From Winogradskyella sp. (GTDB lineage Bacteria > Fidelibacterota > Marinisomatia > Marinisomatales > AB-629-J13), in the NCBI GenBank assembly GCA_964230865.1, contig CAXRJK010000128.1, positions 1 to 44,346 of the forward strand: a stretch of 44,346 nucleotides of DNA, read 5' to 3'. A model generated the notes under the pieces. The model saw only the letters and a list, made by a program, of their open reading frames with translations. It did not search any database and was not told the origin of the DNA. Within the stretch, counting starts at the first letter, position 1. Each line of letters begins with the position of its first letter. Positions 6,940 to 35,438 of the stretch are shown here, piece after piece. The position numbers and the translations under genes are program-made.

Positions 6940-7713
6940 CTAAAAATATTCAATGTAAGTAATCTTGAGTTCTCGATTGAAATAATTTACTTTGTCCTCA
7001 TCAAAGAGAAGATTATTAAAATCTAGTTCAATGTGGAGATGATCCACAAATGTCCATCGCAAAGCTGCATTTAAATATCCACCCTTATTGAGAGCAAGAT
7101 TCTTCGCTGTCATATCATTTTCATTTAATGCAGCATTATATTCAAATAAAAGTGATATCTCTGGGTTGATTTCCATATCCAAACCAAAAAACAAATTTGG
7201 GTCATCATCGCCATCCCTATCTTCTAAGAAATTATATCCTATTCCCGCGTGTAATCCAGCATTCCCCAGGGGAGTTTTCCAGTTTTTGCTTGATGAGATA
7301 TAGGCACCATATGCTTTAATATCATACCTTTGTAGTGTATCTACATCAGTATAATCTCCAAACCCCTGCGTATTTAATCCAATAGCACAACCAGGAGCAG
7401 AATCAGTTTCATCTAACAAATGGTATTTTAAATTGACCTCTGGACGCGGATACCAGTGAAGTGTGTCATCTCCAATAAGATTTCCTGCACCATAAGAAAG
7501 TCCAAATTGAAAACGGTCGGTAATTCCAACAGTAAGCCCTGTGGTTAAACCACCTCTTTTCTGAACCCGCATTTCCATGGAAAAACTTCCACGAACCAAT
7601 GTCCCCGCAGTTGGTACTGTAATTAAATTAGTAGGAGGTGGGTAGGTAGTCCCCTGAGAGAAAATTAAATTAAAAAATAATGCAATGATTAATATTCGGT
7701 ATGTGTTTTTCAT
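6940..7713 (-). CDS. Small outer-membrane beta-barrel protein, function unknown
   Basis: Signal peptide (...NLIFS/QGT), alternating amphipathic beta pattern, and a C-terminal aromatic residue (..ITYIEYF). Confidence 0.5.
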   Translation of the reverse strand: MKNTYRILIIALFFNLIFSQGTTYPPPTNLITVPTAGTLVRGSFSMEMRVQKRGGLTTGLTVGITDRFQFGLSYGAGNLIGDDTLHWYPRPEVNLKYHLLDETDSAPGCAIGLNTQGFGDYTDVDTLQRYDIKAYGAYISSSKNWKTPLGNAGLHAGIGYNFLEDRDGDDDPNLFFGLDMEINPEISLLFEYNAALNENDMTAKNLALNKGGYLNAALRWTFVDHLHIELDFNNLLFDEDKVNYFNRELKITYIEYF

Positions 7714-19738: not shown

Positions 19739-21886
19739 TTATTTAATAACTAAAAATTTTCCTTCTTTAATCTTTCCATAAGAATTGCTTTGAGAATCTA
19801 AATTTTCTACTGTAAAAAGGTAGAGCCCCGATGCAATCGCTTGATCATTTTGGGTAATCAAATCCCAAGCGTGCTGACCTCCACTTAACACGGGATTTTG
19901 ATTTGAATTTATATTTCTTACATCTCCACCTATATAATCTTGGTCATGAAATAGGATATCTATTGGATCACCGGAAAGAGTGAAAATCCGAATCTCGGCT
20001 TTCTGTGGAAGACCCTGAAACCATATCATCCTTTCACGGCTTCCATAATCATCCCACTTTGCCTGTCCACGGTAGGGGTTTGGATAGACTGTGGGTTGCC
20101 ATGTCGATTCTTCACTTTGTGACTGAATCCCAGGATATACATAAACTCGATTTCCATATTTTGAGCTTTCAAGTGAACCGAGATTTGCTGCAGGATCTCC
20201 CCGATCAAATGCTGTAACGGAATAATAGTTTAGCCATCCATTTTTTACTCCCTCATTCACAAATTTATAATGATAGTAATTTCCATCAATTAAAATACTA
20301 TCAGGATCTCCAAACTCATTAACAATTTTTACAGGTTCAAACCCTGTATTATAGCCAATTTCTAATGATTCTTCATCTGCCCTATCAAACTCAGCTAACA
20401 AAGAAAATTCTTCGGTATCGTCTCCAACAGTTCTCTTTGCTCCATATATCCGATAGCCCTCAAAATCTTGTTCTCTACTAATTGGATCAATGAATGGTTC
20501 TGAGTTCTTCTGCCAGAAAATAGTCACCTTTTGGTCTCCTACTTCCACTGCCATATTTGGAATTGGTGGGGGCTCAGGAAGAATATAGCGATCTATTTCT
20601 CCGTTATTGTTTAAATCTTCACCTTCATCTAGAATATTGTTTCTGTTTTTATCCTCTCCATCATAAGCTCTCTGTGCCCAGTCTGCATTCACTATAAGAT
20701 TTGACCTTCTTTCCGGAGAGTCAGAGCCAGAGCCCTTCCACAGCCCACACACAACTGCAAATGCGATTGTACAGGATTCACCGGGGGGTAGGACTGATGT
20801 GGAATCCTCTCTTATTTGACTGCCGAATGGTCCAGCAGACAACATGAATAGCCAACTGTTCGTTTTGGAAGGGTAACCATCTGAATTATATAAATCTGAA
20901 TCGCTACCTTTTGGGACACTTGAACTTAAAAGCTCATATCTATCATCATCATTCAATGCCATAGAGTAATTAGGATAATCTTGATTATTTGAATTAGTCC
21001 AGACCCATTGATTATAATAGGAATTAATAATAGGTCGGGATATTGTACTGCCCAATAATGAAATCCCTATGTAAGACTCTGCCCAACCGTCATCACCATC
21101 TGCATCATACTGGTAAGCGATATCCCTTGAGAATCCAGATTCATCTAAAGATTCATCAAAGCCATCCAAATTATCGTACCAGGTAAATCCACTTCCTGGT
21201 TCGTATTTATTGGTATAGTTCATATTGGCTACGGAAGCGTCTGTCCAAATTCCAGCATATAGATCATCAATTGTCTCAGTGGAGTGGTTTGTTATTGTAT
21301 AATTCAAAATAACAAAAGCATCAGCAAACGAAAAATTCCAGGCATAGGTTTCCAGATGAACAGAAATTCCCAGTGGAGTGTGATCGGTAATATTATTATC
21401 ATCTTCGGTTGTTGAGCCATAATCTCTAAAATTTGTCATAAAATCCTGATGAGATACAGCGAAAGGGGAATAAAATTGCGCCATAGAATCCTGAGATGTA
21501 GAGCTAATGGAAGACCGAATATCCATACCGGATGTTGCAAAAAACTCAAACCCTACATCTCCTGCTTCAAACACACCGTCCACTATTGAGGTGGACACTC
21601 GTGGAATTCCATTGACTTTACCTCCTATCCATAATCCCGCAAAAGAGAAATGCTCTACTTGGTCACGTTGAATCGAGGTGTGCTGTTTATATTGACAGGA
21701 AGGAAGAATACGCTCATTTATTGGGTTCCAACCATTGCCAAGAACACCAAAGTTAGTAACGGTCATCCCCAACTGTCCAACAGTAGTAACTTTATCAAAA
21801 ATATCTGGTGATAGCTGTGCTCTAGAGTGAGTAATAAGATTAAATGCTAATATCCATATTGTAAAATTGGAAGCACGAATCCTCAT
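19739..21886 (-). CDS. T9SS-sorted secreted protein of unknown function (FN3-like region, Ca-binding-like acidic loop, C-terminal sorting domain)
   Basis: Signal peptide ..HSRA/QLS and an acidic loop DKNRNNILDEGEDLNNNGEIDRY. The C-terminus VYPNPYRGQ...AEIRIFTLSGDPI...GLYLFTVENL...GKFLVIK is T9SS/FlgD-Ig-like. I saw no catalytic motif. Confidence 0.6.
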   Translation of the reverse strand: MRIRASNFTIWILAFNLITHSRAQLSPDIFDKVTTVGQLGMTVTNFGVLGNGWNPINERILPSCQYKQHTSIQRDQVEHFSFAGLWIGGKVNGIPRVSTSIVDGVFEAGDVGFEFFATSGMDIRSSISSTSQDSMAQFYSPFAVSHQDFMTNFRDYGSTTEDDNNITDHTPLGISVHLETYAWNFSFADAFVILNYTITNHSTETIDDLYAGIWTDASVANMNYTNKYEPGSGFTWYDNLDGFDESLDESGFSRDIAYQYDADGDDGWAESYIGISLLGSTISRPIINSYYNQWVWTNSNNQDYPNYSMALNDDDRYELLSSSVPKGSDSDLYNSDGYPSKTNSWLFMLSAGPFGSQIREDSTSVLPPGESCTIAFAVVCGLWKGSGSDSPERRSNLIVNADWAQRAYDGEDKNRNNILDEGEDLNNNGEIDRYILPEPPPIPNMAVEVGDQKVTIFWQKNSEPFIDPISREQDFEGYRIYGAKRTVGDDTEEFSLLAEFDRADEESLEIGYNTGFEPVKIVNEFGDPDSILIDGNYYHYKFVNEGVKNGWLNYYSVTAFDRGDPAANLGSLESSKYGNRVYVYPGIQSQSEESTWQPTVYPNPYRGQAKWDDYGSRERMIWFQGLPQKAEIRIFTLSGDPIDILFHDQDYIGGDVRNINSNQNPVLSGGQHAWDLITQNDQAIASGLYLFTVENLDSQSNSYGKIKEGKFLVIK

Positions 21887-21985: not shown

Positions 21986-22969
21986 TCAGAAAGAAAACTT
22001 CCAAACCACGGGTCTGTGATCTGAGACCAATGCATCATAATCTGTCCACCCATTTGGAAAGTAATCTTCAATTCTAATAGTAGTTACTGTTGAAGCATTA
22101 CCTTCAAATTCATCAAATAGATTATTGGTAATAAGGATATGATCAATATGACTAGGCCACGTGGGATAGGACCAGTGGGCCCAGTGCTGACCATTTTTCC
22201 CACTAATCGCTAATTCCATATCAATAAATTTAAAGTTGCTTGAGTTTTTAATAAAATTTGAAAACACATTGGAGACCTCGGGTTCATGGATATCATCATT
22301 AAAATCCCCTAATATAATGGTATTAGAATCCCAAAAATTGTTCAATACATAATCTTCTAAAAGTAGTGATGCTGCTTGTCTGCGAGCTTCTTCATCATCA
22401 TCATCAGGTATATCCATGATCCCATCCATATCAATATCAATGCTATCAATCTCGTCGTTCCCACAGCATTTTAAATGGTTATTGATGAGGATAATTGAAT
22501 TTTCATTAAAATCGCCTTTAAATATGAAAGGCTCACGCGGAAATGCAGAATTCTCATCGTGATATATTTCAAATACATCCGTGAAATCTATAGTATTAGA
22601 TTTATAGATATATGCCAACCCATAGCTACCACCTAGAGTCTTAACTCCTACCCAATCGTTTTCCCCATCTAGCTGATTGCAACGGTTAACCAAAGCAGTA
22701 AAGTATGATCCAGAGTTAATTTCCTGTAACCCAGCTATATCACAATCTAATTCGACTAGTATTTGAGCAACATATTCGACCGTATTATCTTCTGCTTTGG
22801 GAAAGGTCTCAAGGTTCCAAGTTAATACCTCAAATGTATCATCTGTTCCAAACGATAAACCAGAAAATTGAGAATTTGAAATTGAATTAAGTTTGTCTTC
22901 TGCGCAGGAATAAAACAAAAGAATAAAAAAGACAATTTGAACCTTCCATTGGTTAATCAAATGGAACAA
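21986..22969 (-). CDS. Endonuclease/exonuclease/phosphatase (EEP) family lipoprotein, likely a secreted nuclease
   Basis: Lipobox LFYS/C. The EEP motifs are intact: LTWNLETFP, DIAGLQEI, INNHLKCCG, ILGDFNDD, IDHILIT, VSDHRPVVWKF. The RRQAASLL helix after the HLK motif resembles ExeM/NucH-type EEP domains. An acidic insert reads DIDMDGIMDIPDDDDEE. Confidence 0.75.
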   Translation of the reverse strand: MFHLINQWKVQIVFFILLFYSCAEDKLNSISNSQFSGLSFGTDDTFEVLTWNLETFPKAEDNTVEYVAQILVELDCDIAGLQEINSGSYFTALVNRCNQLDGENDWVGVKTLGGSYGLAYIYKSNTIDFTDVFEIYHDENSAFPREPFIFKGDFNENSIILINNHLKCCGNDEIDSIDIDMDGIMDIPDDDDEEARRQAASLLLEDYVLNNFWDSNTIILGDFNDDIHEPEVSNVFSNFIKNSSNFKFIDMELAISGKNGQHWAHWSYPTWPSHIDHILITNNLFDEFEGNASTVTTIRIEDYFPNGWTDYDALVSDHRPVVWKFSF

Positions 22970-24872
22970 AGCCCAACATCACCGGACGGTGGTCAGAAAT
23001 ATACTTTTCATAAATCGAAAATCCGCCAAGGTAATCTTCAATGAACAAAGTTTCAGCACGATTGATTTTTGATCTTGGAATCATGTGTTTTGAAACAAGA
23101 ATATGATCCAAAAAACTTATATAAGGTTCTTTAGGATATGATGCCTTTGACCTATCATAAACTAGCTCTTGGTTAATAAAATAAAATCGATTGTCATCAA
23201 TAAATGGATGAAAACAATGTTCTGAATCTTTATCCTTTAAGTCATCATTCCAGTCCCCAAGCACTATAAAGTTATTATACCCTGATTCCATTTCCTCATC
23301 TAAATATTTATGAAGCATAAGAGCTGCTTTCTGCCTGCGCTTCAATCCCGAGTCACAACACTTCATATGGAGGTTTATAACCGAAAAGTTCAACACCTCT
23401 TCCCCACATCGGTATTGAAAGTCTCCTCGTAAGGGAGGCCTACCCGCAAAATTATAATCATCCTCGGCAAATATTTCTGACTGATTCACTAGTGTAAACA
23501 TATCTTTTTTATAAATAATGGCCTGATCCATAAAAGATGACTGCTGGGATACAATAAAATCATAATTTGGTAGGCGACTCATAAGACTGCTGAAAAACCC
23601 TGTGAATCGTATTTCCTGAAATGCAATCATATCAGCATCCATTCCATCAATAACACTTGCTAATACTGGAACTGTAGAGTCCGGATGAGCAGGGAAAAAT
23701 TCTGTGTTCCATGTAATTATTTCTATTTCGTCTTGTTTATTTACATTTAAGGTAGGATTAGTGTGAATTAAATTTGAAGTTTTTTCACATTGAGTTGATA
23801 TTTCATAAGGGATCTTCCATTTTGGAGGACCGTAAACTTTTTTCAAAGACCAGTCTAAATGAGACTGAATCCACTTACTCATGTGTGTATCATAGGTAAA
23901 ATCATCTGCCAGAAGTGTTTGCCCTACCCTTCCATCAACAACAGATTCATACCCTATGAAATGATGTGATTTTTCATCAAAGTGTAATTGAATATGCCCA
24001 AACTCAGTACCCCCGCCATAATTTTGAAAAATATACACATGGCTGTGGGGATCGTACCAGGGCGTAGGATACCCCTTACTAACTCCCCCTGAAACGATAA
24101 GATCCACACCTTCAGAAAAATATCCTAACTCCAGGGCATTGTTTATGTTTTCCTGAGATTTTGATTTTACTCTTACTGAATCAAGAAATTCTTTATATAC
24201 CTCTTCTCTATCCCAAGGAACCCCCAAGCTAGTAAGAACGATTATGATATCTGCTCCATTTTTTTTCATTTTGGGGACCCAGTAATCTAAAGTTTCTATT
24301 TCCGATTGAAATGTAAATCCTAATCTGTTTTGTTCTAACACAACCTCGTCCAACTTTTTGGGGACTATCCCTATAATACCAACTTGAACTCCCGATTTTG
24401 GAATTATTGTATAAGGCTTTATATTATCAAAGTTTTTTCTATTTTTTAAATTTGATATAAGAAAAGGAAAATCTGCGAGCTCATTTAGTTTCAATAAATT
24501 ACTTGCCCCCCCTATAAAATCATATCCCCCTGGAACCAGCGCATCGTATTTGATGTGGTTCATCCATTCAATCATTGTCCTTCCGCTGTCTGCAAGTCCA
24601 AAAGGGTGTCCCTGAAAAAAGTTTCCACCCTCTAACAAAAGAACATCCTCATTTGTGGAGCTAACATCCTGCCTTAGTTTTTGGATATAAGAATAGAGAG
24701 CTGAACCATCCAAAATATCTGGAGGATATTCGGGATTCATAAACCATGCTTTTTGACCCACTATTTGACCATGAAGATCATTTGTAGTAATGAGATTGAC
24801 CACTATCTGATCTTCGGAAGCCGAAGCACTTAAAACTACAAAACTACAAAATAAAAAAAAATTATTTTTCAA
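22953..24872 (-). CDS. Fusion protein: degenerate 5'-nucleotidase/metallophosphoesterase-like N-domain plus an intact EEP nuclease-like C-domain
   Basis: The N-domain aligns by eye to UshA but keeps only the first motif (TTNDLHG). The others are changed: GGDxxTG becomes EGGNFFQG, GNHEFD becomes PGGYDF, THMGH becomes LTSLGV, and GGHSQ becomes SGGVSK. The C-domain is intact (ITWNTEFFP, MIAFQEI, NLHMKCC, VLGDWNDD, LDHILVS, ISDHRPVMLGF). Confidence 0.75.
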   Translation of the reverse strand: MKNNFFLFCSFVVLSASASEDQIVVNLITTNDLHGQIVGQKAWFMNPEYPPDILDGSALYSYIQKLRQDVSSTNEDVLLLEGGNFFQGHPFGLADSGRTMIEWMNHIKYDALVPGGYDFIGGASNLLKLNELADFPFLISNLKNRKNFDNIKPYTIIPKSGVQVGIIGIVPKKLDEVVLEQNRLGFTFQSEIETLDYWVPKMKKNGADIIIVLTSLGVPWDREEVYKEFLDSVRVKSKSQENINNALELGYFSEGVDLIVSGGVSKGYPTPWYDPHSHVYIFQNYGGGTEFGHIQLHFDEKSHHFIGYESVVDGRVGQTLLADDFTYDTHMSKWIQSHLDWSLKKVYGPPKWKIPYEISTQCEKTSNLIHTNPTLNVNKQDEIEIITWNTEFFPAHPDSTVPVLASVIDGMDADMIAFQEIRFTGFFSSLMSRLPNYDFIVSQQSSFMDQAIIYKKDMFTLVNQSEIFAEDDYNFAGRPPLRGDFQYRCGEEVLNFSVINLHMKCCDSGLKRRQKAALMLHKYLDEEMESGYNNFIVLGDWNDDLKDKDSEHCFHPFIDDNRFYFINQELVYDRSKASYPKEPYISFLDHILVSKHMIPRSKINRAETLFIEDYLGGFSIYEKYISDHRPVMLGFVPFD

Positions 24873-24880
24873 TTAATAAG

Positions 24881-26206
24881 TCAGATTGTATAGGAAATTG
24901 ACAGCATAAAATTGAATTTAGATTCTGTAACTCTATCAAGAGAGGGACGAACATCATTTTCAACAGGGAAGAGGTCAGGATATTTATATTGTCCGGATTG
25001 AAATCCAAGCCCTACATCAACCTGCAATTCATCAAATGATTTCCCTGTTCCTACAGTAATGGTTGTTTGTGGATCCATTACCTGGAATGGTGATTGATTA
25101 TATACCATCCCAACTCTCACAGGAATTTTATTTGTAGCCATATATTCAATCCCTAGGTGCCATGAATTGGTTTCATTTATTTGAAAAATTTCATCATTCT
25201 TTAAGGCAATTGAATAGCCATCGGTAGTCGTAAAATCAGCCACAACATACACAGGCGTCCTGCCATAGGTAGTATATGAAATTCCAAAAGATTTTCGAGC
25301 CGGTTTTACATAGCTGATTCCAGCTAAATGATAGCTCAATGTATCACCACTAAAAAAACCTGGGAGGCCTGAAGTAACATCCAACAGTGGAGGGTTGTAG
25401 GAGTCAGATTCAATTTTTAGTTCTGTATCTATGGAAAATGAAAAATGAATATTCTTCCATGTATTCAATTCAATGCTATAACTGAGGAATCCACCCTTTG
25501 GAGTAAAAACAATCTCACTAATGGGATTAATAGTTGCTAGGTATCCGTCCATATTTCTCAATGTATCAACCTGAAAAACATCATGGATCGATGATTCTGA
25601 AACCTTATGATATGCTAATCCCCAATTCATTGTAAATTTTTCATCCATCAAATATCTGATTCCTAATCCAATAGAAATTTTATCTAATTGTCCATGTACC
25701 TCATAATAGTGAAACCCTAATAAGGGATCTTTATTCCCAATTATTCCATCATCAAAACTTAAGCTTCCTCTAATCTCCTCCTCATATTTGTATGCGAAAG
25801 ACGTTAGCGGGTCTGAAGAAATAGCAGCTGTTAACCTATATAATCCCATCGTCTTAGATCCAGATATGCCTATCCCTTGGAAAAATCTGTTAGTTTGATT
25901 TACTACATAATCTGATGTGGTAAGATAATCACCAAAAAAATCTTTTAAATCAAACCCTCTACGCTCCAAAATTGAATTTCCACTTAAATGATATTCAAAC
26001 GAAAAGTCAGCGGGGAGCCTCCATAATCCTGCAGGGTTTAGCAGCAGTAATCGAGTGGATCTATCACTGTGTACAGTATTACCCATTCCAAATGAACGGG
26101 CTGAACCAAGATAGGGATTGGACCCTGTGATTCGATTAAAATATGATTGAGAGATTCCCACTGAGACACAAAAGAATAAAACCAGAAGAAAAACTTTTTC
26201 TCTCAT
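24881..26206 (-). CDS. PorV/FadL-like outer-membrane barrel paralogue
   Basis: I prefer the ATG at 26206 (MREKVFLLVLFFCVSVGIS/QSY) over the track start at 26287, which would overlap the upstream gene by 77 bp. The N-terminus PYLGSARSFGMGNTVHSDRSTRLLLLNPAGLW fits the PorV-type pattern. The C-terminus ..MLSISYTI is beta-barrel-like. Confidence 0.55.
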   Translation of the reverse strand: MREKVFLLVLFFCVSVGISQSYFNRITGSNPYLGSARSFGMGNTVHSDRSTRLLLLNPAGLWRLPADFSFEYHLSGNSILERRGFDLKDFFGDYLTTSDYVVNQTNRFFQGIGISGSKTMGLYRLTAAISSDPLTSFAYKYEEEIRGSLSFDDGIIGNKDPLLGFHYYEVHGQLDKISIGLGIRYLMDEKFTMNWGLAYHKVSESSIHDVFQVDTLRNMDGYLATINPISEIVFTPKGGFLSYSIELNTWKNIHFSFSIDTELKIESDSYNPPLLDVTSGLPGFFSGDTLSYHLAGISYVKPARKSFGISYTTYGRTPVYVVADFTTTDGYSIALKNDEIFQINETNSWHLGIEYMATNKIPVRVGMVYNQSPFQVMDPQTTITVGTGKSFDELQVDVGLGFQSGQYKYPDLFPVENDVRPSLDRVTESKFNFMLSISYTI

Positions 26207-26210
26207 TAAT

Positions 26211-28688
26211 CTATATTGCATAGTCAATCTGAAGTCTAAAGTCTGATTCACTTTCATTGACCACCGGTCTAGAGATCCATCTTCCACTATCAGATTTTCC
26301 CGAAGTGATAGATGAATAAGAGTCGTATCCGGTGAAGCTGACTTTTAATTTTATTGTAAAATTATTAACGGGTGAACACTGCCAAGAGACCCAAGAATGC
26401 ATTGCACCATGTTGTGCTGAAAATATTCGAAAATCTGTATCTTCAAAATTCCATAAAAATCCCTGAATGAACAAAACACCACCTTTCAATGTCATTGCAT
26501 CAGAAAAATTATGAGTACCGCTTATGCCAATTGTCTCATCAGGAGAACCAATATCTCCAACCTTCATTTCTGCACCAGAACTTACTGATTCAGTGAGTCT
26601 TGGCCTTGGGGAAAATGTTGTATATCCCCGGGAGTACAATAGCTCTAGCTGATTAAAGCGAGACAACCTGAGACGAAAACGAATTCGTGTTTCTCTGGAA
26701 TCAAAAGGACTTGGGTGAAATATATCAAAAGAGCCACGCTCCTGCCATTTCTGGCGGATGTTAATTCTGTAATTAAATACCGGTCTCCAATCAACAGACA
26801 AAACAGTACGATAGTATTTAGCATCATCTGCTTTTCGTGTCCAGGTATCCCAATTTATATAGCTTACTAATGATCTGTGAAATTGATATCGAGTGAAAAA
26901 ATAAAAACCCTGTTCAGACTGAGGTTGTGGATTTCCTGAGTACAGGAAACTATACACAGGATCTTCCAGCCAATAACCATCTTCAAAAATGGATGTTTTA
27001 AATCTCTGATAGTTTGAAAATGATCTCTGGTAAGGGTTATCAAATTCCAGATCGTAATCACGATACAACACTAAAAAGTTTAAATTATCAAATTGCGCAT
27101 AAAGGCTGGTTACAAATGCATTTGGCACTTCATTAAATTTAAAAAAGTTAGAGCCTTTTGATATTTCGCCGTACTCCCCCTGAATGGACATATTTCCTAA
27201 TACAAAACCATAATCAAAACCCAAAACCCTTCGATAGCTTTGGGCATCTTTCCAGATTGGAGAGGAACCGTTTGATTGATACATTGCTGCAATTTCCGGG
27301 TCTGCAGAGTTAGACATGTAAGAGAGATAAAAAGCATCCCCCGAATACTCGTCATAATCATTGGTATTGGAAGCTAAATCAAAATCAGGTTCATTATCAT
27401 CTGCACCACCGGTAACTGACTGAACAACCTGAGGGGATAGAATCCGATCATATAGACTTTCATACACGGTAATCCCAACATGCAGTCCGACAATCGGCAT
27501 AACTCTTACATTTCCACCCCAAGTCATTTCGGTCACCGATGAAGTAAGCGGAGAAATAATTTTTAGGGAATCATTGTTAGCTCCCATTGGAAGCCTAGGT
27601 TGCATGACAATCAATGATGTAAAAGAACTGTCTCTGTTAATAATTGCATCTCGGGGGGCCTTGGATATAAAAAATGCGGTACGAAACAACGAATTGGAAA
27701 ATTGAACTGCTAAACCATTTAAGATATATTGGCTAGATCTAGTCACATCCGCATTAACTCCATTAGCTTTTTTTGTAAATCCAAATCCTGTTCGTCGTGG
27801 AGTAAAATAATCCCCCGTTTCAAAAACAACTCCCTGTCCAAAAGCTGCAGAAAAGTTTCCTAAAATAAATTTATCTAATCGAATAGCACCCAAATCTATA
27901 TTTTCTACAAGGCCATATATTTTTTTTGTATAAATACCTTTGGGATTCCCCATATTCTGATAATGTGATAATCCCATTTTAATATGGTTACCATATTGTA
28001 AAGATAACTTCTGAAATAGTTCAGGTCGACTTGAGTTTTTGAAAGCTAATATAGTACCTTCATTATCAGGGTTTGTTGTAACGGGTACCGTCCGAATTAA
28101 TTGGGAGTATCGACCATGAAGTTGGGGCTTACTTTCAGTTCGCGACTCAAAATCTACAAAATCAATCAAATTTCTATATCCCCAATAGCTAATTCCTGGA
28201 GCATTCCTTAATTCAAAAGAACCTTTTATTTCTCCTATTCTCTGTTGTTTCATCACTGCTGCGACATCAATGGGACTCAAATTGGGCAAAGCGCTCAGCT
28301 CATCATACGACATTTCATTTATATTCCCCGGTTTGAAAATTCTATCCAACCATATATCTGAAAGACCTTCCTTGCTTCCCTCAGATGCCAACCACTGCTT
28401 GACTTTGTATGAGGATAAATTCTGTTCCCGAATAAAGGATGATTGCTCCCGAGGGAAGATCTCAACTAAAGGTTTTATTTTATTTATATCAATGATTGTA
28501 AGACTTTCAATTTCTAATAAATCATAAATAGTATCAATTCCATTTCTCTGACTTATAAATATTCGTATATCCTCTTTTTGTTTTTCAGATAGAGGTAAAC
28601 TATTTAATTGTTCTCCGTCAGTATTATTTAAATCAATATCTGCCAAAAGTAAAACAGGCAGAAGTAAAATTATTTCAATCCTTTTCAT
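26211..28688 (-). CDS. Large outer-membrane beta-barrel protein with two N-terminal ComEA-like helix-hairpin-helix domains
   Basis: Signal peptide ..LLLA/DID with two HhH units at aa 17-75 and 120-180. The remaining ~640 aa are rich in alternating aromatic/small residues and Y/F/W-ended strands, and end ..FRLQIDYAI. Confidence 0.65.
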   Translation of the reverse strand: MKRIEIILLLPVLLLADIDLNNTDGEQLNSLPLSEKQKEDIRIFISQRNGIDTIYDLLEIESLTIIDINKIKPLVEIFPREQSSFIREQNLSSYKVKQWLASEGSKEGLSDIWLDRIFKPGNINEMSYDELSALPNLSPIDVAAVMKQQRIGEIKGSFELRNAPGISYWGYRNLIDFVDFESRTESKPQLHGRYSQLIRTVPVTTNPDNEGTILAFKNSSRPELFQKLSLQYGNHIKMGLSHYQNMGNPKGIYTKKIYGLVENIDLGAIRLDKFILGNFSAAFGQGVVFETGDYFTPRRTGFGFTKKANGVNADVTRSSQYILNGLAVQFSNSLFRTAFFISKAPRDAIINRDSSFTSLIVMQPRLPMGANNDSLKIISPLTSSVTEMTWGGNVRVMPIVGLHVGITVYESLYDRILSPQVVQSVTGGADDNEPDFDLASNTNDYDEYSGDAFYLSYMSNSADPEIAAMYQSNGSSPIWKDAQSYRRVLGFDYGFVLGNMSIQGEYGEISKGSNFFKFNEVPNAFVTSLYAQFDNLNFLVLYRDYDLEFDNPYQRSFSNYQRFKTSIFEDGYWLEDPVYSFLYSGNPQPQSEQGFYFFTRYQFHRSLVSYINWDTWTRKADDAKYYRTVLSVDWRPVFNYRINIRQKWQERGSFDIFHPSPFDSRETRIRFRLRLSRFNQLELLYSRGYTTFSPRPRLTESVSSGAEMKVGDIGSPDETIGISGTHNFSDAMTLKGGVLFIQGFLWNFEDTDFRIFSAQHGAMHSWVSWQCSPVNNFTIKLKVSFTGYDSYSSITSGKSDSGRWISRPVVNESESDFRLQIDYAI
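28148..28640 (-). other. Two ComEA-type helix-hairpin-helix (HHH_3-like) DNA-binding units within the 825-aa barrel protein
   Basis: The units are IDLNNTDGEQLNSLPLSEKQKEDIRIFISQRNGIDTIYDLLEIESLTIIDINKIKPLV and NINEMSYDELSALPNLSPIDVAAVMKQQRIGEIKGSFELRNAPGISYWGYRNLIDFV. Both follow the ComEA layout: (I/V)N(I/L)N, then xxxL..LP(G/N)(I/L)..., then a short region ending in F/I..DLL..., then G(I) and (L)..(V/I). Confidence 0.6.
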
Positions 28689-28694
28689 AAAATA

Positions 28695-29582
28695 CTAATC
28701 ACTAAAATTATATATCAAGCCGGTCTGGTGTACTATTGGCAATACTGGATGGGTAAGCAGTGCATACCCGATTTTAATTTTTGAAACTGATAGAAAACCA
28801 CCAATCCCCAGTCGGTTGGGATTAGATTGTACACCTGCGATTAAATGTATAGAGGGACTTACATCAAAGTGAATGCTACCTTTAATTTGAATGTCTTCGC
28901 CCAATGCTCTCTCAAAAAGAAACGATGTCATGAGCCCCTTAAATGGTGTATAGGAAACTCCAGCTGAGAGCCTTTTTGGCAGGGATTGTTCTGTCCCTCC
29001 TGAACCTATGGTGGATGAAACAGCATTTTTAATCATGGCACCTACTCTGTGCTTGTCACGCAGCGACCCTATAACACCTATATCCAATCCCCACGAATTT
29101 GACATTCCCCCTGGTATCCCATCTGACCCATCTCCTGCTGTACCTGCTGAATGTCCCAAAATCCATGAAAAATGGTTAAGCGTCACCCCCAAAGCCAAAG
29201 TAGAATTCTTATCCTTTTGCAAATTAAATCCATGGGAGATACCAATCCTCTGTTCTGTAGAGAGCTCTACCTTTTCAAAAGTGACTTTTGAAATCTCTGT
29301 AGAAACACCAATTACACCCAACCCTTTAAAGCTCTGAATCCATCCCGCATGCGTATAGGGAATACCATAGAGCTCAGCAGTCCCAACATTTAAAACTTTA
29401 TCAGAGACCTCTGATAAAGTTGCGGGGTTATGAAACAAACTATGAATTCCACCGGTAGTGGGAGTCATAGTTCCAACCGATGCGCTCCCAGAAACTCCTG
29501 TATAAGTATAATCACTCACAGACTGACCTAAAATAACATTGGTCATAAATAGAAAAAATAAAATTGAAATTATATGATTCAA
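28695..29582 (-). CDS. Small PorV/FadL-like outer-membrane barrel paralogue
   Basis: Signal peptide ..VILG/QSV, then GVSGSASVGTMTPTTGGIHSLFHNPATLSE (NPA motif) and a beta-strand periodicity to the end. It is overlapped by 4 bp by the upstream LTD gene. Confidence 0.5.
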   Translation of the reverse strand: MNHIISILFFLFMTNVILGQSVSDYTYTGVSGSASVGTMTPTTGGIHSLFHNPATLSEVSDKVLNVGTAELYGIPYTHAGWIQSFKGLGVIGVSTEISKVTFEKVELSTEQRIGISHGFNLQKDKNSTLALGVTLNHFSWILGHSAGTAGDGSDGIPGGMSNSWGLDIGVIGSLRDKHRVGAMIKNAVSSTIGSGGTEQSLPKRLSAGVSYTPFKGLMTSFLFERALGEDIQIKGSIHFDVSPSIHLIAGVQSNPNRLGIGGFLSVSKIKIGYALLTHPVLPIVHQTGLIYNFSD

Positions 29583-31021
29583 TTTGATTTAACTCCTACA
29601 ACTACCGGAGCATAATCAGTGAATGTTTTTCCTGAATGAAACTGGTTCACTTCAATATGCATTAGGTAAGTACCTGGATTAACTATTTCACCCAGATGGT
29701 TTCTACCATCCCAATCTGATTTATCTTCAACTCTGATTACAGTTCCCGCATTTTCAAAATATCGATCTACCAACGTGGTAACAAATCTACCACTTAAGTC
29801 AAATACCCGAACCACTACCCGTGAATCATCGGGAAATGAATATGTAAAGTCAAGTCTTTCTCCCAGTGTTGGGATCAAAACAAAAGGCGCTGGCTTTATT
29901 TTTGCAGATATTGTCTCCGGATTGGGCTCATACACTCCCTCCTTAAGATAAACATCTGCCTCTAAAATATTATTTGCAGAAGAGATCTCAACCTGCCAGT
30001 TTCCTCTGTAATTATCAACTATACCTCTTGCCTGTATAACATATTCTGCGGGGTTGTAATAATCCACCATATATCCAATAGATGACTGTGCCACATCCCA
30101 ATCCCATATGGTAAGATCCATTCTGAATCCTTCATTATCCTCAATTGTGATCACCTGAGGCCCATTTGAAGATCGCTTATCTCCAAATTCAATAATTAAG
30201 CCCATAATGGTAACATCAAAACCAACGTCATTTTCGGGGTCTCCCTGAATAATGTCTGAGATTTTCCAGAGAGTTTTGGGATTAAACAATATTGCCCAAC
30301 TTTCCAGAAAGTTTTCACTGGTTTCATCATGTCCGGTAATTCCATTCCCTTGAACCAATATTTCATCCACCTCTGAAAAACGGCGTCTCTGATAAATTTG
30401 GTCTCCTGAAATTGAAGGTATTACAGATTGTAATGAAAGTGGGGTATCTGTGTTATAGCCCGGGATATCTGTTTTTGAAACTCCATAGGTTGTATCGCCC
30501 CATAAAAAATAGTCCACATCCTGTACTACTGATTCTCCTTCTGACCATCTGAATAAAATAAGTACTTCAGGATTCTGAAGTATTTCTATGGATGCAAGAT
30601 GATCCCCATATGAAATAGTAGTTTCACCCTCTACTGCCTGTTTCATATTTCCAAATAAGGTAAAATCAGGATATTCATCATAATAGTTGAAATACCTGGA
30701 GCTGTCATGAAAACTCAAAGTAAAACTGCTCCCTGCAGCGATGGTTGTATCTGGAAATCGTGCTATAAAATCATTGATTGAATTACTCCAAAAGTTTTCA
30801 CCTGAGGGAAGGTTGTAATAATAAGAACCTGCTGTTGGCTTGGAAGCATCTGTAATATAATAATCTCCGAGATTTATATCATCTGAAGTAGGATTATATA
30901 TTTCTACCGCTTCACCGTTTGATTCACCAGGACTTATTTTATAAAATATTAAATGATCCGGAGTTTGACAAATAGCAATCACTCCACATAAAGTTACAAT
31001 GAAAATGCTCCGGAAAATCAT
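29579..31021 (-). CDS. Secreted lamin-tail-domain (LTD) protein with an OB-fold-like module and a FlgD-Ig/T9SS-like C-terminal domain
   Basis: LTD signature LIFYKISPGESNGEAVEIYNPTSDDINLGDYYITD. OB-like segment VTIMGLIIEFGD...VITIEDNEGFRMDLTIWDWD...IQARGIVDNYRGNWQVEI. C-terminus RVVVRVFDLSGRFVTTL...WDGRNHLGEIVNPGTYLMHIEV. Confidence 0.65.
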   Translation of the reverse strand: MIFRSIFIVTLCGVIAICQTPDHLIFYKISPGESNGEAVEIYNPTSDDINLGDYYITDASKPTAGSYYYNLPSGENFWSNSINDFIARFPDTTIAAGSSFTLSFHDSSRYFNYYDEYPDFTLFGNMKQAVEGETTISYGDHLASIEILQNPEVLILFRWSEGESVVQDVDYFLWGDTTYGVSKTDIPGYNTDTPLSLQSVIPSISGDQIYQRRRFSEVDEILVQGNGITGHDETSENFLESWAILFNPKTLWKISDIIQGDPENDVGFDVTIMGLIIEFGDKRSSNGPQVITIEDNEGFRMDLTIWDWDVAQSSIGYMVDYYNPAEYVIQARGIVDNYRGNWQVEISSANNILEADVYLKEGVYEPNPETISAKIKPAPFVLIPTLGERLDFTYSFPDDSRVVVRVFDLSGRFVTTLVDRYFENAGTVIRVEDKSDWDGRNHLGEIVNPGTYLMHIEVNQFHSGKTFTDYAPVVVGVKSN

Positions 31022-31079
31022 AAGCGATCTTATAAAAACCTGTATAAGTAAAAACTAGATAGTAAAATGAGAGATTAAC

Positions 31080-34000
31080 TTACTTGATTAGAACCATCTT
31101 TCTCAGCTCAGAATAAGAACCTACCGATAGGTGATACATATATACACCACTTGAAATGTTGGTTCCTCTCTCGTCCGTTCCATTCCACTGAATCGAATGA
31201 ATACCTGGATTTACAAAATCATCAATTAAGGTAAAAACCTTTTTCCCATCTAAGCTAAAAATATGGAGTGAAGTATATGATTCCACTGGCACTCCAAATG
31301 TAATTGTTGTTGTTGAGTTAAATGGGTTGGGGAAGTTCTGATCTAAAGTAATATGATTTGGTATAGTATTAACCTTTTTAAGGTGATAGGCACTGGAAAC
31401 AGGGGAAACCACGACCTCCCCAGATCCTGATAATGAAATAGCCTTTCCAAATTCATCTATCAACTGCCACTGGTCATTTCCAAAGTTCGGATTTATGGAC
31501 CATGATAGCTTAATCTCCGAATTTGTACCCGTTACCATAATTTTATCATCTGAAATCAGGACCTTTTTATCATCTGCAAAACGAACATCAAAAAAATCTG
31601 CTCCTCCATCAGATAAATTTATAGGTGGAAGAGGTGGAAGTGAAAACATATCAAACTTGTCCTGTGAAATTTCAACCCCAAAATATAGCGGGACACCATT
31701 CATAGTCAAGAGAGAAGCATCCGACAAATAGTTTGAGTTAGATATTTTCTCTGAACTTCTATTTTCTGTTGTCAGTGTTATTTCACCAGCACTGTCGGCA
31801 TTCAGCCAGTAGCCTTTTCCTGGCTCAATATCATTTGCCGAAAAATAGGTTGACTCAAAGCCATAAAGAGTACCAGAAACTATTATGTTATCTGGGTCAA
31901 TTACATCGCCAATATTCACGGATACCGAAGGCCCAGATATCAAGTTCCACCCTTCAGAAAGGGTGACTGAGACTGATTCAATTGGTTGCCCAGCAATAAC
32001 CTGGGAACCTGTATTATCGAAATAAAGCCAGTAGCCATTTCCGGGGCTAAACACAGACTCAGAGCTATAGGTATTGCTAAACCCATACATAGTTCCATTC
32101 ACAGATTCAGTAAACACATCAGTATACAAAAAGGATTCCACATTCATAGAAACCCCAACCAGGTTCCAGCCTGACTGAAAGTCAACGTTAATGCTGGACT
32201 CTCCAGATCCTGTGGTAAAATCATTTTCATTTCGGGGATAGAGCTTAAACTCACTATAACTATATCCGATAACTCCGGTAATACTATCATAATAATCACC
32301 TACAGAGATGGTCGGCCAGTTACCATCAAAATAATAATCATCTACCATTGCTGTGCCTGTCCCGTCACTTATTGTCCAATTTCCATACTCATCAACAGAC
32401 TCAAATGTTACATTCGAATAGCTTACCAACATACTCTCATACATCTCCCCAGACTCTGAACACTCAATACCTATTTCGTCCGCAGTAACTGAAGTAGGAG
32501 ATAAATCATTTCCTGAAGATATCAAAGAAGTTGATGACACACTTATTAATTGTGTAAAGCTATAGTATTCATTTACAGTTGCAGTTATCTGTAACTCATC
32601 TCCAACCGATGGAACCACCAATGTATCATAAACAAAAATACCGCTCCAGGTTTCTGTGCTTGGGTCTTGCAAAAAGAAATTTGGATTGTCAGCTGATTTA
32701 ACATGGGTAACTATCCCAGATGTTGTAACAAGTTGACCTGCCATAGGTGTTTCATAGCAATAGTCGCCCTGCTCTGTAGTATACTGTAAATCATATATAC
32801 TTATCTCACTGGGACCTGTGTCTCCACCCATGTCTCCACTATTACGAGGATAAAGCTTAAACTCACTATAACTATATCCGATAACTCCGGTAATACTATC
32901 ATAATAATCACCTACAGAGATGGTCGGCCAGTTACCATCAAAATAATAATCATCTACCATTGCTGTGCCTGTACCATCACTTATTGTCCAATTTCCATAC
33001 TCATCAACAGACTCAAATGTTACATTCGAATAGCTTACCAACATGCTCTCATACATCTCTCCTGATTCGGAGCACTCAATCCCGATATCAATAGCTGAAA
33101 CTGGAATAGGAGAGATAGTATTTTCCGAAGAAACTACCGTAGAGGATACCACATCTATTAACTGTGTAAAACTATAAAATTCATTTACAGTTGCAGTTAT
33201 CTGTAGTTCATCGCCAACCGATGGCGAGACCGATGTGTCATAAACATAAATACCGCTCCATGTAGCTCCATTTGGATCCTGCAAAAAGAAATTTGGACTG
33301 CTGGCTGAATTAACATGAGTAACTATTCCAGATGTTGTAACAAGTTGGCCAGCCAAAGGTGTCTCATAGCAATAGGCACCTTGCTCTGTAGTGTACTGTA
33401 AATCATATATAGTTTGATCTGCCATTAAAATTAAAATAGAAACCTCATCCGTATCCATAGCGCCTTGGTCATCAAATACGGTTAATCTAAATACCATCGT
33501 TGTACTCACATCTGGCGCAGTAAAGGTAACAATTGCTTCTTCATAATCACTGAGGGTGACAGCCTCACCTGAAATCTGCTCCCACAAAAATCCTGAAATT
33601 GTACCATCAGGATCTGAACTCCCACTACCATCTAGGGTAACGACAGCTCCGTGCTCGACCATCTGATCTTCTCCAGCATTTGCGATCGGGAGCTGGTTTC
33701 CGCCCGTTGCGACAAAGTCACTTGTAAAACAAGGTAAAAGCTGATATCCTTCAGTGTAGGGTTCAGACGAATCATATTGACCAGCAACTCCTGTTACGTT
33801 TGCAGGCCACGATGGTTCATCAGTTCCATCAATCTCAGTATCGCTATCTATCCGCATGGTCGCTGTACCTGAACCTCCATCAACAATAGTTAAATTTTCA
33901 GAAGACCCCTCAGAGGGCCAAACGCCATCGATAACTGTCACACTTTGAATTGTTATCAGTTCACTTTCATAAGATTCACCATTTATTGATAAATCAGAAA

Positions 34001-35144
34001 CAGTTACCAGCTGAGCTTCTGGGAGAGCCCCCTGTCCCATAACCGCTATATCATTTTCTGAAGAAACCAGAACTTCAAATTTTCCATTGAATTCATCTGT
34101 TAATCCTGAGACCTGTATCAAATCACCGTAGCTCAAATCAACATCAAAACCAACTCCAAAAACCACAAGCCCTGCCGTATCATCCTGAATTACATATTCT
34201 GTATTCCCATTTCCCTCTTGAAAATTAATCGAGATAACAACTCCTTGGACCATTACCGCTGCCCCAACACCCATATTCCTTGCGCTTAAAATTGACATTT
34301 GATCTATGACATTTACTGACGTTACGTCTGTGGCTGAATTGCCTTCGCTATCGTAAACTGTCAACTCAAATTCTAGCGCTCCTCCCTCGCTTGGAGCAGT
34401 AAATGTCGCTTCCGCACTCTCAGAACCACTTATTGAAACAGATGTACCAGAGATCTGAGTCCATATATAAGCTATGATATCACCTGCAGATCCAGAGCCA
34501 TCAAGAGAAACCAATTCCCCTGGTAATACCAGCTGGTCATCCCCCGCATCTACAATTAAAACAGTTCCACCATAATCGTGTGAGCCTAAATAATCAAAAG
34601 TGTTTTGTGGATATACCAACCACTCTGAGTTAGATGCTGTTGTGCCAGCAGAGGAATCCCAATCTGTGTTCCCTTGAGAAACATTTGGCATTCTAACCAG
34701 CGTATGCTCTTTTGTTCCATTTGTCACGCCAGCCACATCCCAACCGCTTCCAGGGTCATCACCTGACTCCCCTATAGCATCAATCAAAATAAAGTTTCCA
34801 GACCCATCATTTTTTGCCAATCCTTGAGCATCATCACCATTATGATAGAGTGTAATAAGTAAATCTGCATGAGCTGTCATAGCTGGGTCAGCATCCTCAT
34901 GGCACACAACAAAAACATCGCCAGGTGCTAATTGTCCACTGATATCCACTGTATACTCAGGCCAATCTCCCCCATTTGAGATTTGCCAAAGCTGATATTC
35001 ACTTAAATCAATTGTTGCGTCAGTGGGGTTATAAATCTCCAGAGCTTTATTATAGCTGCTTCCTTCAATATATTCTGAAAAAAATAAATCCTGAGCTAAT
35101 AGGGTAGATAGCAATAATAGTGGAAATAAGACATAATTTTTCAT
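31080..35144 (-). CDS. Giant T9SS-sorted surface protein: ExeM/NucH-type LTD, two PKD-like domains, three OB-fold-like modules (two as a tandem duplicate), GWNL/GYW module, type-A T9SS C-terminal domain. No nuclease domain.
   Basis: Signal peptide ..TLLA/QDL. The N-terminus LFFSEYIEGSSYNKALEIYNPTDATIDLSEYQLWQISNGG...GDVFVV...HNGDDAQGL...DAIGESGDDPGSGW...TLVR is the ExeM/NucH-style LTD. PKD-like units include DAGDDQLVLPGELVSLDGSGS and ANAGEDQMVEHGAVVTLDGSGSSDPDG. The C-terminal 87 aa (31083-31343), NFPNPFNSTTTITFGVP...GVYMYHLSVG...RKMVLIK, form the sorting domain. Confidence 0.8.
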   Translation of the reverse strand: MKNYVLFPLLLLSTLLAQDLFFSEYIEGSSYNKALEIYNPTDATIDLSEYQLWQISNGGDWPEYTVDISGQLAPGDVFVVCHEDADPAMTAHADLLITLYHNGDDAQGLAKNDGSGNFILIDAIGESGDDPGSGWDVAGVTNGTKEHTLVRMPNVSQGNTDWDSSAGTTASNSEWLVYPQNTFDYLGSHDYGGTVLIVDAGDDQLVLPGELVSLDGSGSAGDIIAYIWTQISGTSVSISGSESAEATFTAPSEGGALEFELTVYDSEGNSATDVTSVNVIDQMSILSARNMGVGAAVMVQGVVISINFQEGNGNTEYVIQDDTAGLVVFGVGFDVDLSYGDLIQVSGLTDEFNGKFEVLVSSENDIAVMGQGALPEAQLVTVSDLSINGESYESELITIQSVTVIDGVWPSEGSSENLTIVDGGSGTATMRIDSDTEIDGTDEPSWPANVTGVAGQYDSSEPYTEGYQLLPCFTSDFVATGGNQLPIANAGEDQMVEHGAVVTLDGSGSSDPDGTISGFLWEQISGEAVTLSDYEEAIVTFTAPDVSTTMVFRLTVFDDQGAMDTDEVSILILMADQTIYDLQYTTEQGAYCYETPLAGQLVTTSGIVTHVNSASSPNFFLQDPNGATWSGIYVYDTSVSPSVGDELQITATVNEFYSFTQLIDVVSSTVVSSENTISPIPVSAIDIGIECSESGEMYESMLVSYSNVTFESVDEYGNWTISDGTGTAMVDDYYFDGNWPTISVGDYYDSITGVIGYSYSEFKLYPRNSGDMGGDTGPSEISIYDLQYTTEQGDYCYETPMAGQLVTTSGIVTHVKSADNPNFFLQDPSTETWSGIFVYDTLVVPSVGDELQITATVNEYYSFTQLISVSSTSLISSGNDLSPTSVTADEIGIECSESGEMYESMLVSYSNVTFESVDEYGNWTISDGTGTAMVDDYYFDGNWPTISVGDYYDSITGVIGYSYSEFKLYPRNENDFTTGSGESSINVDFQSGWNLVGVSMNVESFLYTDVFTESVNGTMYGFSNTYSSESVFSPGNGYWLYFDNTGSQVIAGQPIESVSVTLSEGWNLISGPSVSVNIGDVIDPDNIIVSGTLYGFESTYFSANDIEPGKGYWLNADSAGEITLTTENRSSEKISNSNYLSDASLLTMNGVPLYFGVEISQDKFDMFSLPPLPPINLSDGGADFFDVRFADDKKVLISDDKIMVTGTNSEIKLSWSINPNFGNDQWQLIDEFGKAISLSGSGEVVVSPVSSAYHLKKVNTIPNHITLDQNFPNPFNSTTTITFGVPVESYTSLHIFSLDGKKVFTLIDDFVNPGIHSIQWNGTDERGTNISSGVYMYHLSVGSYSELRKMVLIK
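32231..33410 (-). repeat. Intragenic tandem direct duplication: two 568-bp units with a 612-bp (204-codon) period, each encoding one OB-like module of the 1354-aa protein
   Basis: gcttaaactcactataactatatccgataactccggtaatactatcataataatcacc... occurs at 32243 and again at 32855. The first ~200 bp of each unit differ at about 3 positions. The rest is clearly diverged while staying in frame. Confidence 0.9.
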
Positions 35145-35276: not shown

Positions 35277-35438
35277 AAATGCAGAAAATGTGAGTGTTTT
35301 TATTCCCAACGAACCTGTCTTGATCCAGTACCCCTCCCAAGGTTTTAGGTCAGAAATTAAAACATAGGTATCGTCAAAAGTGTAAAATGTTCCTAGAGTA
35401 ATGATTCCTTCAGAATCACTAATATCCGGGTATAAATT
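35277..35438 (-). pseudogene. Relic fragment of the GWNL/GYW surface-protein module. It has no start codon and no signal peptide, and is open for 54 codons immediately after, and in frame with, the asparaginase stop.
   Basis: My translation is NLYPDISDSEGIITLGTFYTFDDTYVLISDLKPWEGYWIKTGSLGIKTLTFSAF*. Ungapped against EIVDVNSIIVSGTIYGFDGTYQNSSILEPGKGYWMNANDDGDITLSL of the 1419-aa protein, it gives about 20/47 identities, including G-T-x-Y-x-F-D-x-T-Y and P-x-x-G-Y-W. Confidence 0.45.

Follow-up and report, generated by a model that had tools for sequence, protein, structure and literature searches.

What is the function of a run of closely packed, co-directional genes in which nuclease domains, nucleic-acid-binding modules and outer-membrane barrels are spread over separate reading frames? 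The question is raised by contig CAXRJK010000128.1 (44,346 nucleotides; 'the window' below is this whole stretch, as analysed), in which a reading made from the letters alone (the sequence-only reading) had seen a 'disassembled' version of the ExeM/NucH extracellular nucleases, proposed for capture, cleavage and import of extracellular DNA and displayed by way of type IX secretion (T9SS). Among the pools of organic phosphorus in the ocean, dissolved DNA is a major one, and the Marinimicrobia (SAR406) are abundant and almost wholly uncultured; a locus syntenic across this phylum would give concrete genes for DNA use that can be tracked in metatranscriptomes and metaproteomes. Our analysis supports the earlier interpretation in part. 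The locus holds a gene set of conserved order whose function, we judge, is rather likely to be nutritional: extracellular nucleic acid would be captured, cleaved and taken up, most likely to supply phosphorus, nitrogen and carbon. The domain identities, the nuclease motifs, the degenerate phosphatase motifs, the synteny and the phyletic spread reported below are observations; the substrate, the topology, the direction of transport and the nutritional purpose are what we infer.

The window's sequence is a 100% match to contig DEAI01000040.1 of Candidatus Marinimicrobia bacterium UBA2986. Its genes from position 35144 down to 5873 (window coordinates), among them those lettered A to N here, are all on the minus strand and are separated by 0-99 nucleotides or overlap slightly, in agreement with the sequence-only reading, which had described co-directional and often overlapping genes. 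Genes A-G are referred to as module 1 and genes H-M as module 2. Domains were called by Pfam and NCBIfam scans of the window proteins, with the curated cutoffs as benchmark, and the borders of the repeated modules in A and I were set by phmmer with A's own modules. A scan for sigma-70 promoters and terminators performed no better than chance, and Rfam gave no match in the window. The features of module 1, together with the paralog of A that lies in module 2, are:

31080..35144, minus strand: A, 1354-amino-acid (aa) T9SS cargo with signal peptide, ExeM-type lamin-tail domain (LTD), PKD, DUF5689/OB, PKD, two ExeM-type OB modules, GYW-repeat region and type-A C-terminal sorting domain (CTD)
34566..35096, minus strand: A residues 17-193, ExeM-type LTD (PF00932, NF033680)
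33720..34292, minus strand: A residues 285-475, type-1 OB module (DUF5689; PF18942 34 bits, cutoff 28.6)
32160..33422, minus strand: A residues 575-995, two tandem type-2 (ExeM N-terminal type) OB modules (ExeM/NucH model, phmmer, ortholog profile)
31092..31334, minus strand: A residues 1271-1351, T9SS type-A CTD (TIGR04183 29.3 bits)
29579..31021, minus strand: B, 480-aa secreted LTD protein with CTD-like C-terminus and weak OB content
28695..29582, minus strand: C, 295-aa small outer-membrane barrel, putatively of the FadL/PorP/TraF_2 superfamily
26211..28688, minus strand: D, 825 aa, two putative ComEA/EEPD1-type helix-hairpin-helix (HhH) units and a large beta-barrel; candidate nucleic-acid conduit
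28149..28637, minus strand: D residues 18-180, two putative HhH_3-type units (N-terminal profile against PDB)
26214..28121, minus strand: D residues 190-825, beta-barrel of about 24-26 strands (AlphaFold pLDDT 71, pTM 0.69)
24881..26206, minus strand: E, putative FadL/TodX/PorV-superfamily barrel of about 441 aa; ATG at 26206 is the probable start (the listed open reading frame begins with GTG at 26287)
22953..24872, minus strand: F, 639 aa, signal peptidase I (SPI) signal peptide, degenerate 5'-nucleotidase-like metallophosphatase domain, intact endonuclease/exonuclease/phosphatase (EEP) domain, no CTD; probably periplasmic
23955..24809, minus strand: F residues 22-306, pseudo-phosphatase domain (alignment to 3ivd/CD73; 53 orthologs)
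22989..23717, minus strand: F residues 386-628, EEP domain (catalytic motifs invariant in 53 orthologs)
21986..22969, minus strand: G, 327-aa lipoprotein, candidate EEP nuclease (lipobox ...LLFYSC|AEDK); probably surface-exposed
15460..19719, minus strand: I, 1419-aa paralog of A with PSCyt1 CTGCH motif, two DUF5689 and two ExeM-type OB modules and type-A CTD

Profile searches largely confirmed the architecture that the sequence-only reading had drawn by eye, namely LTD, PKD, three plus four OB-like modules, T9SS CTDs, two EEP genes (one of them a lipoprotein), an HhH-bearing barrel, PorV/FadL-like barrels and a TonB receptor. Its account of the gene order was less exact: it had placed the EEP genes straight after B and gene I next after them, and three barrel genes and the 715-aa gene H, respectively, intervene. 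It had also overlooked the pseudo-nucleotidase domain of F, the cytochrome-c motif of I and the existence of two tandem modules.

Gene order and the candidate nucleases

Conservation of gene order was evaluated on the open reading frames of loci from the best 80 of 232 GTDB species genomes that encode a relative of D; these 80 are metagenome-assembled genomes that are of Marinimicrobia type by title or are titled 'uncultured bacterium', with two labelled Flavobacteriales. Essentially all loci that are long enough retain the order A-B-C-D-E-F-second EEP gene, at D identities of 38-78% and with varying flanks. The gene set is thus syntenic, and the lack of synteny in related genomes that the sequence-only reading had named as contrary evidence is not seen. 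In one Marinimicrobia genome (locus L002, 13925-14578) a class-B acid phosphatase gene lies between the gene for the FadL-like barrel (E) and the F ortholog.

Parts of the same cassette occur beyond the phylum, in gene contexts that were verified with family hidden Markov models (HMMs). A Fermentibacterota locus (L087) has an OB protein followed by C, D, E and a 5'-nucleotidase, a WOR-3 locus (L088) has a DUF5689/OB protein followed by C, D and E, and a third lineage (L090) has D, E and a 5'-nucleotidase. The 5'-nucleotidases of L087 and L090 match the F HMM at 1e-79 to 1e-97 and keep every catalytic motif as well as the 5_nucleotid_C domain. The presence of the cassette in other phyla, with an intact nucleotidase, indicates that it is old, and the motif comparison indicates that the Marinimicrobia swapped this active nucleotidase for a dead one fused to a nuclease, which would be a clean domain replacement at a fixed operon position.

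The loss of function in the first domain of F is visible in its motifs, whose states were read from an alignment to 3ivd/CD73 and then from 53 orthologs. Residues 22-306 align with the 5'-nucleotidases 3ivd, CD73 and UshA (E 2e-20), and DxH alone is kept among the metallophosphatase motifs: GD has become GN (N84 replaces Asp in 52 of the 53 orthologs), GNHE lacks its Asn-His, the His that follows is replaced by Ser in 40 orthologs and retained in 11, and GHxH has become GG(V/I/N)S. F has no 5_nucleotid_C domain. Given this loss of metal-binding and catalytic motifs, we rejected F as a working 5'-nucleotidase. The domain is well conserved despite the lost motifs, which points to a pseudo-enzyme with a retained role, and it probably still binds nucleotide ends.

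The EEP motifs (WN..E, QE, H, GD(W/F)N, DH and SDH) are invariant in the 53 F orthologs and present in G. A profile of the F/G EEP domains is closest to 9sf8/9sf9 (C-terminal region, E 4e-8), DNase1L3, APE, TDP2 and DNase I. G carries a signal peptidase II (SPII) signal, with a lipobox conserved in its orthologs, and F an SPI signal. The second nuclease of the locus takes one of two forms, either a short G-like lipoprotein or an EEP+LTD protein of 527-600 aa that bears, besides its signal peptide, a dockerin or T9SS CTD, and judging by these signals it is a surface enzyme in either form.

A further feature lies upstream of A:

35277..35438, minus strand: relic of a deleted third EEP nuclease gene, last 54 codons, recognized by similarity to a 623-aa EEP gene in L009

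The relic is in frame directly after the stop codon of the asparaginase II gene and shares 54% identity (E 9e-13) with the final 50 residues encoded by the 623-aa gene, which occupies the same position in L009, a related genome; a third nuclease gene has been deleted at 35277-35438 in this lineage.

LTD/OB proteins and outer-membrane barrels

The LTD of A scores 45 bits with PF00932 (cutoff 34.3), and residues 17-193 match the ExeM N-terminus (NF033680, E 2e-28); the protein further contains two K319L-type PKD domains and DUF5689, matches positions 1-112 of the ExeM/NucH model twice, and has no EEP domain in the Pfam and NCBIfam scans. The modules delimited by phmmer number three in A (residues 285-475, 575-790 and 792-995) and four in I (113-303, 315-506, 612-836 and 827-1041), and they fall into two related types, that of DUF5689 and that of the ExeM N-terminus. 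As paralogs, A and I share 35% identity over 1149 residues. I scores 71.7 bits with DUF5689 (PF18942) and 52 bits, above cutoff, with the nucleic-acid OB model PF01336. Searched against PDB, an ortholog profile of the type-2 module matches the N-terminal region of the EEP protein 9sf8/9sf9 (E 5e-9), and one of the type-1 (DUF5689) module gives weak matches to the OB folds of RPA, STN1 and RPA32. In B the LTD is above cutoff, as the sequence-only reading had it; the OB part of that assignment is weak (PF01336 16.9 bits, under cutoff), and B has no match to the OB module HMMs.

Both large proteins exceed the cutoff of 23 bits for the T9SS type-A CTD (TIGR04183; A 29.3 bits, I 36.5 bits), and sprA and a PorV/PorQ-family gene are found in the same window. 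The sorting domains of the sequence-only reading are thereby established. The covalent display on the cell surface that it had derived from them may apply to A and I; cargo with a type-A CTD can be released as well as anchored.

Two further observations concern these proteins. Within A, 300-nucleotide copies at 32229-32528 and 32841-33140 are 89% identical and 612 nucleotides apart, from which the type-2 OB pair appears to have arisen by recent tandem duplication of one module. Residues 34-83 of I (19471-19620, minus strand) form a planctomycete-type PSCyt1 cytochrome-c domain with a CTGCH heme motif, on a T9SS cargo protein; the domain is also present in the I-like protein of L086.

The ExeM/NucH/Xds nucleases (NF033681/NF033680) are built from the same blocks, an LTD, a YhcR-like OB region and an EEP domain, which here reside on separate polypeptides (A, B and I versus F and G). 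The split can be followed along model NF033681, positions 1-112 of which are found in A and I and positions 280-497 in F and G, and likewise along 9sf8/9sf9, in which the N-terminal region resembles the A/I modules and the C-terminal region the F/G EEP domains; the term 'disassembled ExeM/NucH' is therefore apt. Many related Marinimicrobia keep the second nuclease as an EEP+LTD fusion. In contrast to ExeM, no GlyGly-CTERM/rhombosortase signal is found here: A and I end in T9SS CTDs, F and G have plain C-termini, and G has its lipobox. In ExeM of Shewanella, variants from which either the OB-like region or the EEP domain had been deleted showed no nuclease activity (PMC6085458).

Searches with the single sequences of C, D, E and H gave nothing usable in Pfam at E<=10, and ortholog profiles were required. 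For D alone there is no Pfam match at that limit, and PF12836 is precomputed on many D homologs. The profile of the 185 N-terminal residues of D matches human EEPD1 in PDB (9yi2, two HhH units plus EEP; E 2.6e-13) and ComEA (8dfk/8dss, E 1e-6/1e-5), so that EEPD1 presents as one fusion the partnership of HhH and EEP that is seen here between genes. The AlphaFold model of D (35 sequences; predicted local distance difference test [pLDDT] 71, predicted template modelling score [pTM] 0.69) is helical at residues of about 20-175 and forms a barrel of about 24-26 strands at 190-825. No specific fold family could be named for this barrel (best Foldseek template modelling score [TM] about 0.3), which has no close solved relative. 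E as a single sequence is below the Pfam cutoff; its ortholog profile matches TodX, FadL and PorV at about 1e-6, and five of eight orthologs match Toluene_X (best 7e-11). For C, ortholog-level profiles give scattered weak matches to TraF_2, FadL and PorP, and the loop motifs SAGxSGDGSDG and SNPNRFG are conserved. Through these ortholog-level profiles, and only through them, C and E are tentatively assigned to the FadL/TodX/PorV/PorP superfamily.

The D family is widespread. A search of 1.84 billion representatives with its HMM recovers 154 clusters at E<=1e-30; close homologs of D number more than 369, and those members of the family that are named belong to Gemmatimonadota, WOR-3, TA06, Fermentibacteraceae and Riflebacteria. 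Annotation of the family is limited to HhH proteins or 'ComE-like' (in IMG, 'DNA uptake protein ComE-like'). In the literature we found no description of an HhH-barrel module or HhH-barrel fusion, and the literature on Marinimicrobia nucleases and on LTD plus T9SS nowhere describes the locus; the HhH-barrel family, present in several phyla, is thus without a described function.

Proposed function and its alternatives

In the reading that we favour, the T9SS-exported LTD/OB proteins A and B and the lipoprotein EEP enzyme G would act on DNA or RNA at the cell surface, and the fragments would pass the outer membrane via barrel D, whose ComEA-type HhH units (periplasmic by the usual topology of outer-membrane proteins) may hold or ratchet the polymer. 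The FadL/PorP-type barrels C and E may aid transport or anchor T9SS cargo, and F, which has a signal peptide and no sorting domain, would complete the breakdown as a periplasmic enzyme by means of its intact EEP domain, joined in relatives by nucleotidases or phosphatases. In module 2 the multi-OB protein I may be paired with the TonB receptor K, like DdbD with DdbC of Bacteroidales (see below). We favour this reading because all non-barrel parts of module 1 are related to nucleic-acid or nucleotide proteins (LTD/OB, DUF5689, HhH, EEP and 5'-nucleotidase-like), because the EEP motifs of F are invariant, and because A-G are syntenic, the cassette extends beyond the phylum and, in one locus, an acid phosphatase has been inserted into it. 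It also draws on module 2, whose order is kept elsewhere and is there preceded by a nuclease or an LTD+CTD protein, and on the division between a nuclease at the surface, either a lipoprotein or one with a T9SS CTD, and one with a signal peptide only, which mirrors the logic of the ddb locus and of polysaccharide utilization loci (PMC12478041).

The ddb locus also makes outdated the statement in the sequence-only reading that no such system had been described. In Bacteroides thetaiotaomicron, ddbABCDEF (Sharan et al., PNAS 2025) encodes three nucleases, which are secreted and periplasmic, together with DdbC, a TonB-dependent transporter, and DdbD, a DUF5689 protein predicted to bind DNA (PMC12478041), and it is homologous to the natural-transformation genes RA0C_RS04915/04920/02645 of Riemerella anatipestifer, where an HhH protein is also essential (PMC8459023). 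Common to ddb and our locus are a DUF5689 (OB/HIN-like) surface protein and a CarboxypepD_reg outer-membrane transporter; the DUF5689 protein and TonB transporter in question are I and K, one gene apart, and this likeness is one of domains and confined to module 2. The nucleases of ddb are divided between surface (SPII) and periplasm (SPI), as the candidate nucleases G and F would be by their signals. The differences are considerable. Here the DUF5689/OB modules are multiplied (3-4 per protein), fused to LTD, PKD or cytochrome-c domains, and carried by proteins that are T9SS-exported, not lipidated; module 1 has, instead of a TonB transporter, the HhH-fused large barrel and two FadL/PorP-type barrels; the nucleases are of the EEP type (the family of DdbA/B/F is unnamed in the paper's text; PMC12478041); and the phylum is Marinimicrobia. 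A more distant parallel is found in the 'DNA-degradation loci' of Candidatus Izemoplasmatales (Wasmund et al. 2021, PMC8289736), which are marine DNA degraders. Their loci bring together nucleases that are secreted, a large LTD/nucleic-acid-binding/nuclease protein, nucleotidases and transporters; those organisms have no outer membrane, barrels or T9SS and use ABC transporters.

Several results weigh against the nutritional reading. With the nuclease-family models all scores are far under the curated cutoffs (NF033681, cutoff 300 bits: A 106.5, I 77.3, G 35.7, F 26). Some EEP enzymes are phosphatases or sphingomyelinases, and the substrates known for FadL-type channels are hydrophobic ones rather than nucleotides. 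The OB modules, to which we would assign DNA binding by homology, contain 0.9-3.6% Lys+Arg and about 15% Asp+Glu (net charge -25 to -33 per module), and their orthologs are equally acidic, with just 1-2 conserved basic positions; the secreted proteins of the host are acidic throughout, with A and I the most extreme. The HhH region of D is likewise acidic (pI 4.7), and inspection of its sequence shows that the canonical G-h-G glycines of the hairpins are mostly lost, which, together with the fusion to an outer-membrane barrel of about 640 aa, sets D apart from ComEA and EEPD1. With both regions acidic, direct binding of DNA would need cation bridges or base stacking, and the image of OB 'DNA fishing' in the sequence-only reading is weakened, in the direction of the missing basic groove that it had itself named as contrary evidence. 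The D model retrieves only generic large barrels in Foldseek (FimD, MtrB, SlpA and TonB receptors, TM about 0.3). Moreover, B. thetaiotaomicron with ddb grows poorly when DNA is its only source of carbon, nitrogen or phosphorus (PMC12478041), so that a nutritional role does not follow automatically from homology.

Whether the barrels amount to something new is a narrower matter. D and its fixed partners C and E might form a new outer-membrane importer of nucleic acid, with a built-in ComEA-like ratchet and without type IV pilus/secretin or TonB, that feeds either nucleotide catabolism or transformation; we regard this as possible, if doubtful. The HhH-barrel cassette is nonetheless the part of the locus that could prove new in kind, and if the family were a true nucleic-acid transporter it would constitute a third outer-membrane route, beside pilus/secretin and the TonB-dependent route of ddb and Riemerella. 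Import could also serve natural transformation, the OB/DUF5689 proteins capturing double-stranded DNA, D or K importing it, the HhH units acting in a ComEA-like manner before ComEC, and the nucleases trimming the DNA or making it single-stranded. R. anatipestifer indeed needs DUF5689 and CarboxypepD_reg-barrel proteins and an HhH protein for this purpose (PMC8459023), and the N-terminus of D matches ComEA, in line with the IMG label on its relatives. We consider transformation unlikely, given that each locus encodes two EEP enzymes that are catalytically intact by their motifs (with the relic of a third here), and that intact 5'-nucleotidases in other phyla and, once, an acid phosphatase accompany the cassette, a company that suggests full breakdown and not preservation of DNA. 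None of comEC, dprA and comF is present in the window, and the related ddb loci of Bacteroidales confer no consistent DNA uptake (PMC12478041).

The extreme acidity of A and I, which are almost without Lys and Arg, would suit a function that involves no import at all: a T9SS-displayed acidic coat or binders of cations or particles, with C, E and L as shuttles or anchors and the EEP enzymes remodelling a matrix of extracellular DNA or another phosphodiester polymer. The assignment of C, E and L to the FadL/PorV/PorP superfamily, the proximity of the locus to sprA and to another PorV/PorQ-like gene, and the heme-c motif of I are in keeping with such a coat. It leaves unexplained why ComEA-type HhH units are fused to a large barrel and why F has a signal peptide only, and D and E pair with intact 5'-nucleotidases where no large T9SS protein is adjacent; we give it the same small chance as transformation. 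The common theme might, finally, be an artefact of weak domain matches among chance neighbours, as the sub-threshold OB match in B, the single-sequence results for C and E, and ExeM model scores of 26-106 bits against a cutoff of 300 would allow. This is very improbable, since dozens of species genomes, and at least three further phylum-level lineages, retain the gene order while the flanks change, and since ortholog profiles lift the weak matches to E 1e-6 to 1e-13. Nutritional uptake of nucleic acid thus remains the reading that we prefer.

Module 2 and flanking genes

Apart from I, listed above, the genes downstream of G are:

19739..21886, minus strand: H, 715-aa conserved hypothetical protein, beta-rich, with CTD-like C-terminus; opens module 2
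12972..15407, minus strand: J, 811-aa lipoprotein with BNR/Ycf48-like propeller at the C-terminus
10163..12979, minus strand: K, 938-aa TonB-dependent receptor (CarboxypepD_reg, Plug, barrel)
9165..10166, minus strand: L, 333-aa PorV/PorQ-family barrel (NF033709 179 bits, cutoff 90)
7780..9159, minus strand: M, 459-aa NHL-repeat beta-propeller; last conserved gene of module 2
6940..7713, minus strand: N, 257-aa small barrel

The order H-I-J-K-L-M is kept in other Marinimicrobia (K 64-66% identical), where it occupies the same chromosomal slot, downstream of asparaginase II; I and K are separated by J alone, an order repeated in L085 and L086. What precedes module 2 is, in L091 (the contig of L085), a nuclease of EEP+LTD+CTD build and, in L086, a related LTD+CTD protein. 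H-M is a second, separately conserved unit, and the lineage of the window carries both units in tandem. K is a TonB-dependent receptor by its Plug domain (46.9 bits, cutoff 23.9) and by matches of its barrel to TonB-receptor NCBIfam models, and its best homologs are all from Marinimicrobia. The downstream TonB receptor of the sequence-only reading is therefore present, and belongs to module 2 and not to the system into which it had been drawn: as a candidate for the conserved core K was rejected on synteny, being near D only here and, as a paralog (37% identity), in L067.

H and K are unusually well conserved across the phylum (62-81% identical), and single clusters of homologs reach 750 members for K and 471 for H; SAR406 may make heavy use of module 2 as a core system. 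A poor AlphaFold model of H (pLDDT 60.6) retrieved beta-supersandwich N-domains of GH116, GH65 and GH63 in Foldseek at TM about 0.23, which we regard as uninterpretable. The N-terminal 500 aa of J are conserved in module 2, and the propeller at residues 500-811, peculiar to the window's lineage, is absent from the orthologs of about 500 aa in L085 and L086. N directly follows the second nuclease in most genomes, and here H-M is inserted between G and N; we treated N as a neighbour and not as a component of the locus, as its conservation far exceeds that of the rest (identity of about 65% where that of D is about 41%).

On the other side of the locus, the minus strand at 42516-44346 encodes the C-terminal part of Sov/SprA (TIGR04189, E 4e-28, positions 1578-1899 of 2319), a gene that exceeds the window end. 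The 2.14-Mb Marinimicrobia contig L091 shares the order SprA, M28 peptidase, four unknowns, deacetylase, asparaginase II and nuclease locus. Between sprA and the nuclease locus there are also a second PorV/PorQ-like barrel (38104-39066, minus strand; NF033709 75.8 bits, under the cutoff of 90) and, adjoining it, a 545-aa protein with a CTD-like C-terminus (39063-40700, minus strand).

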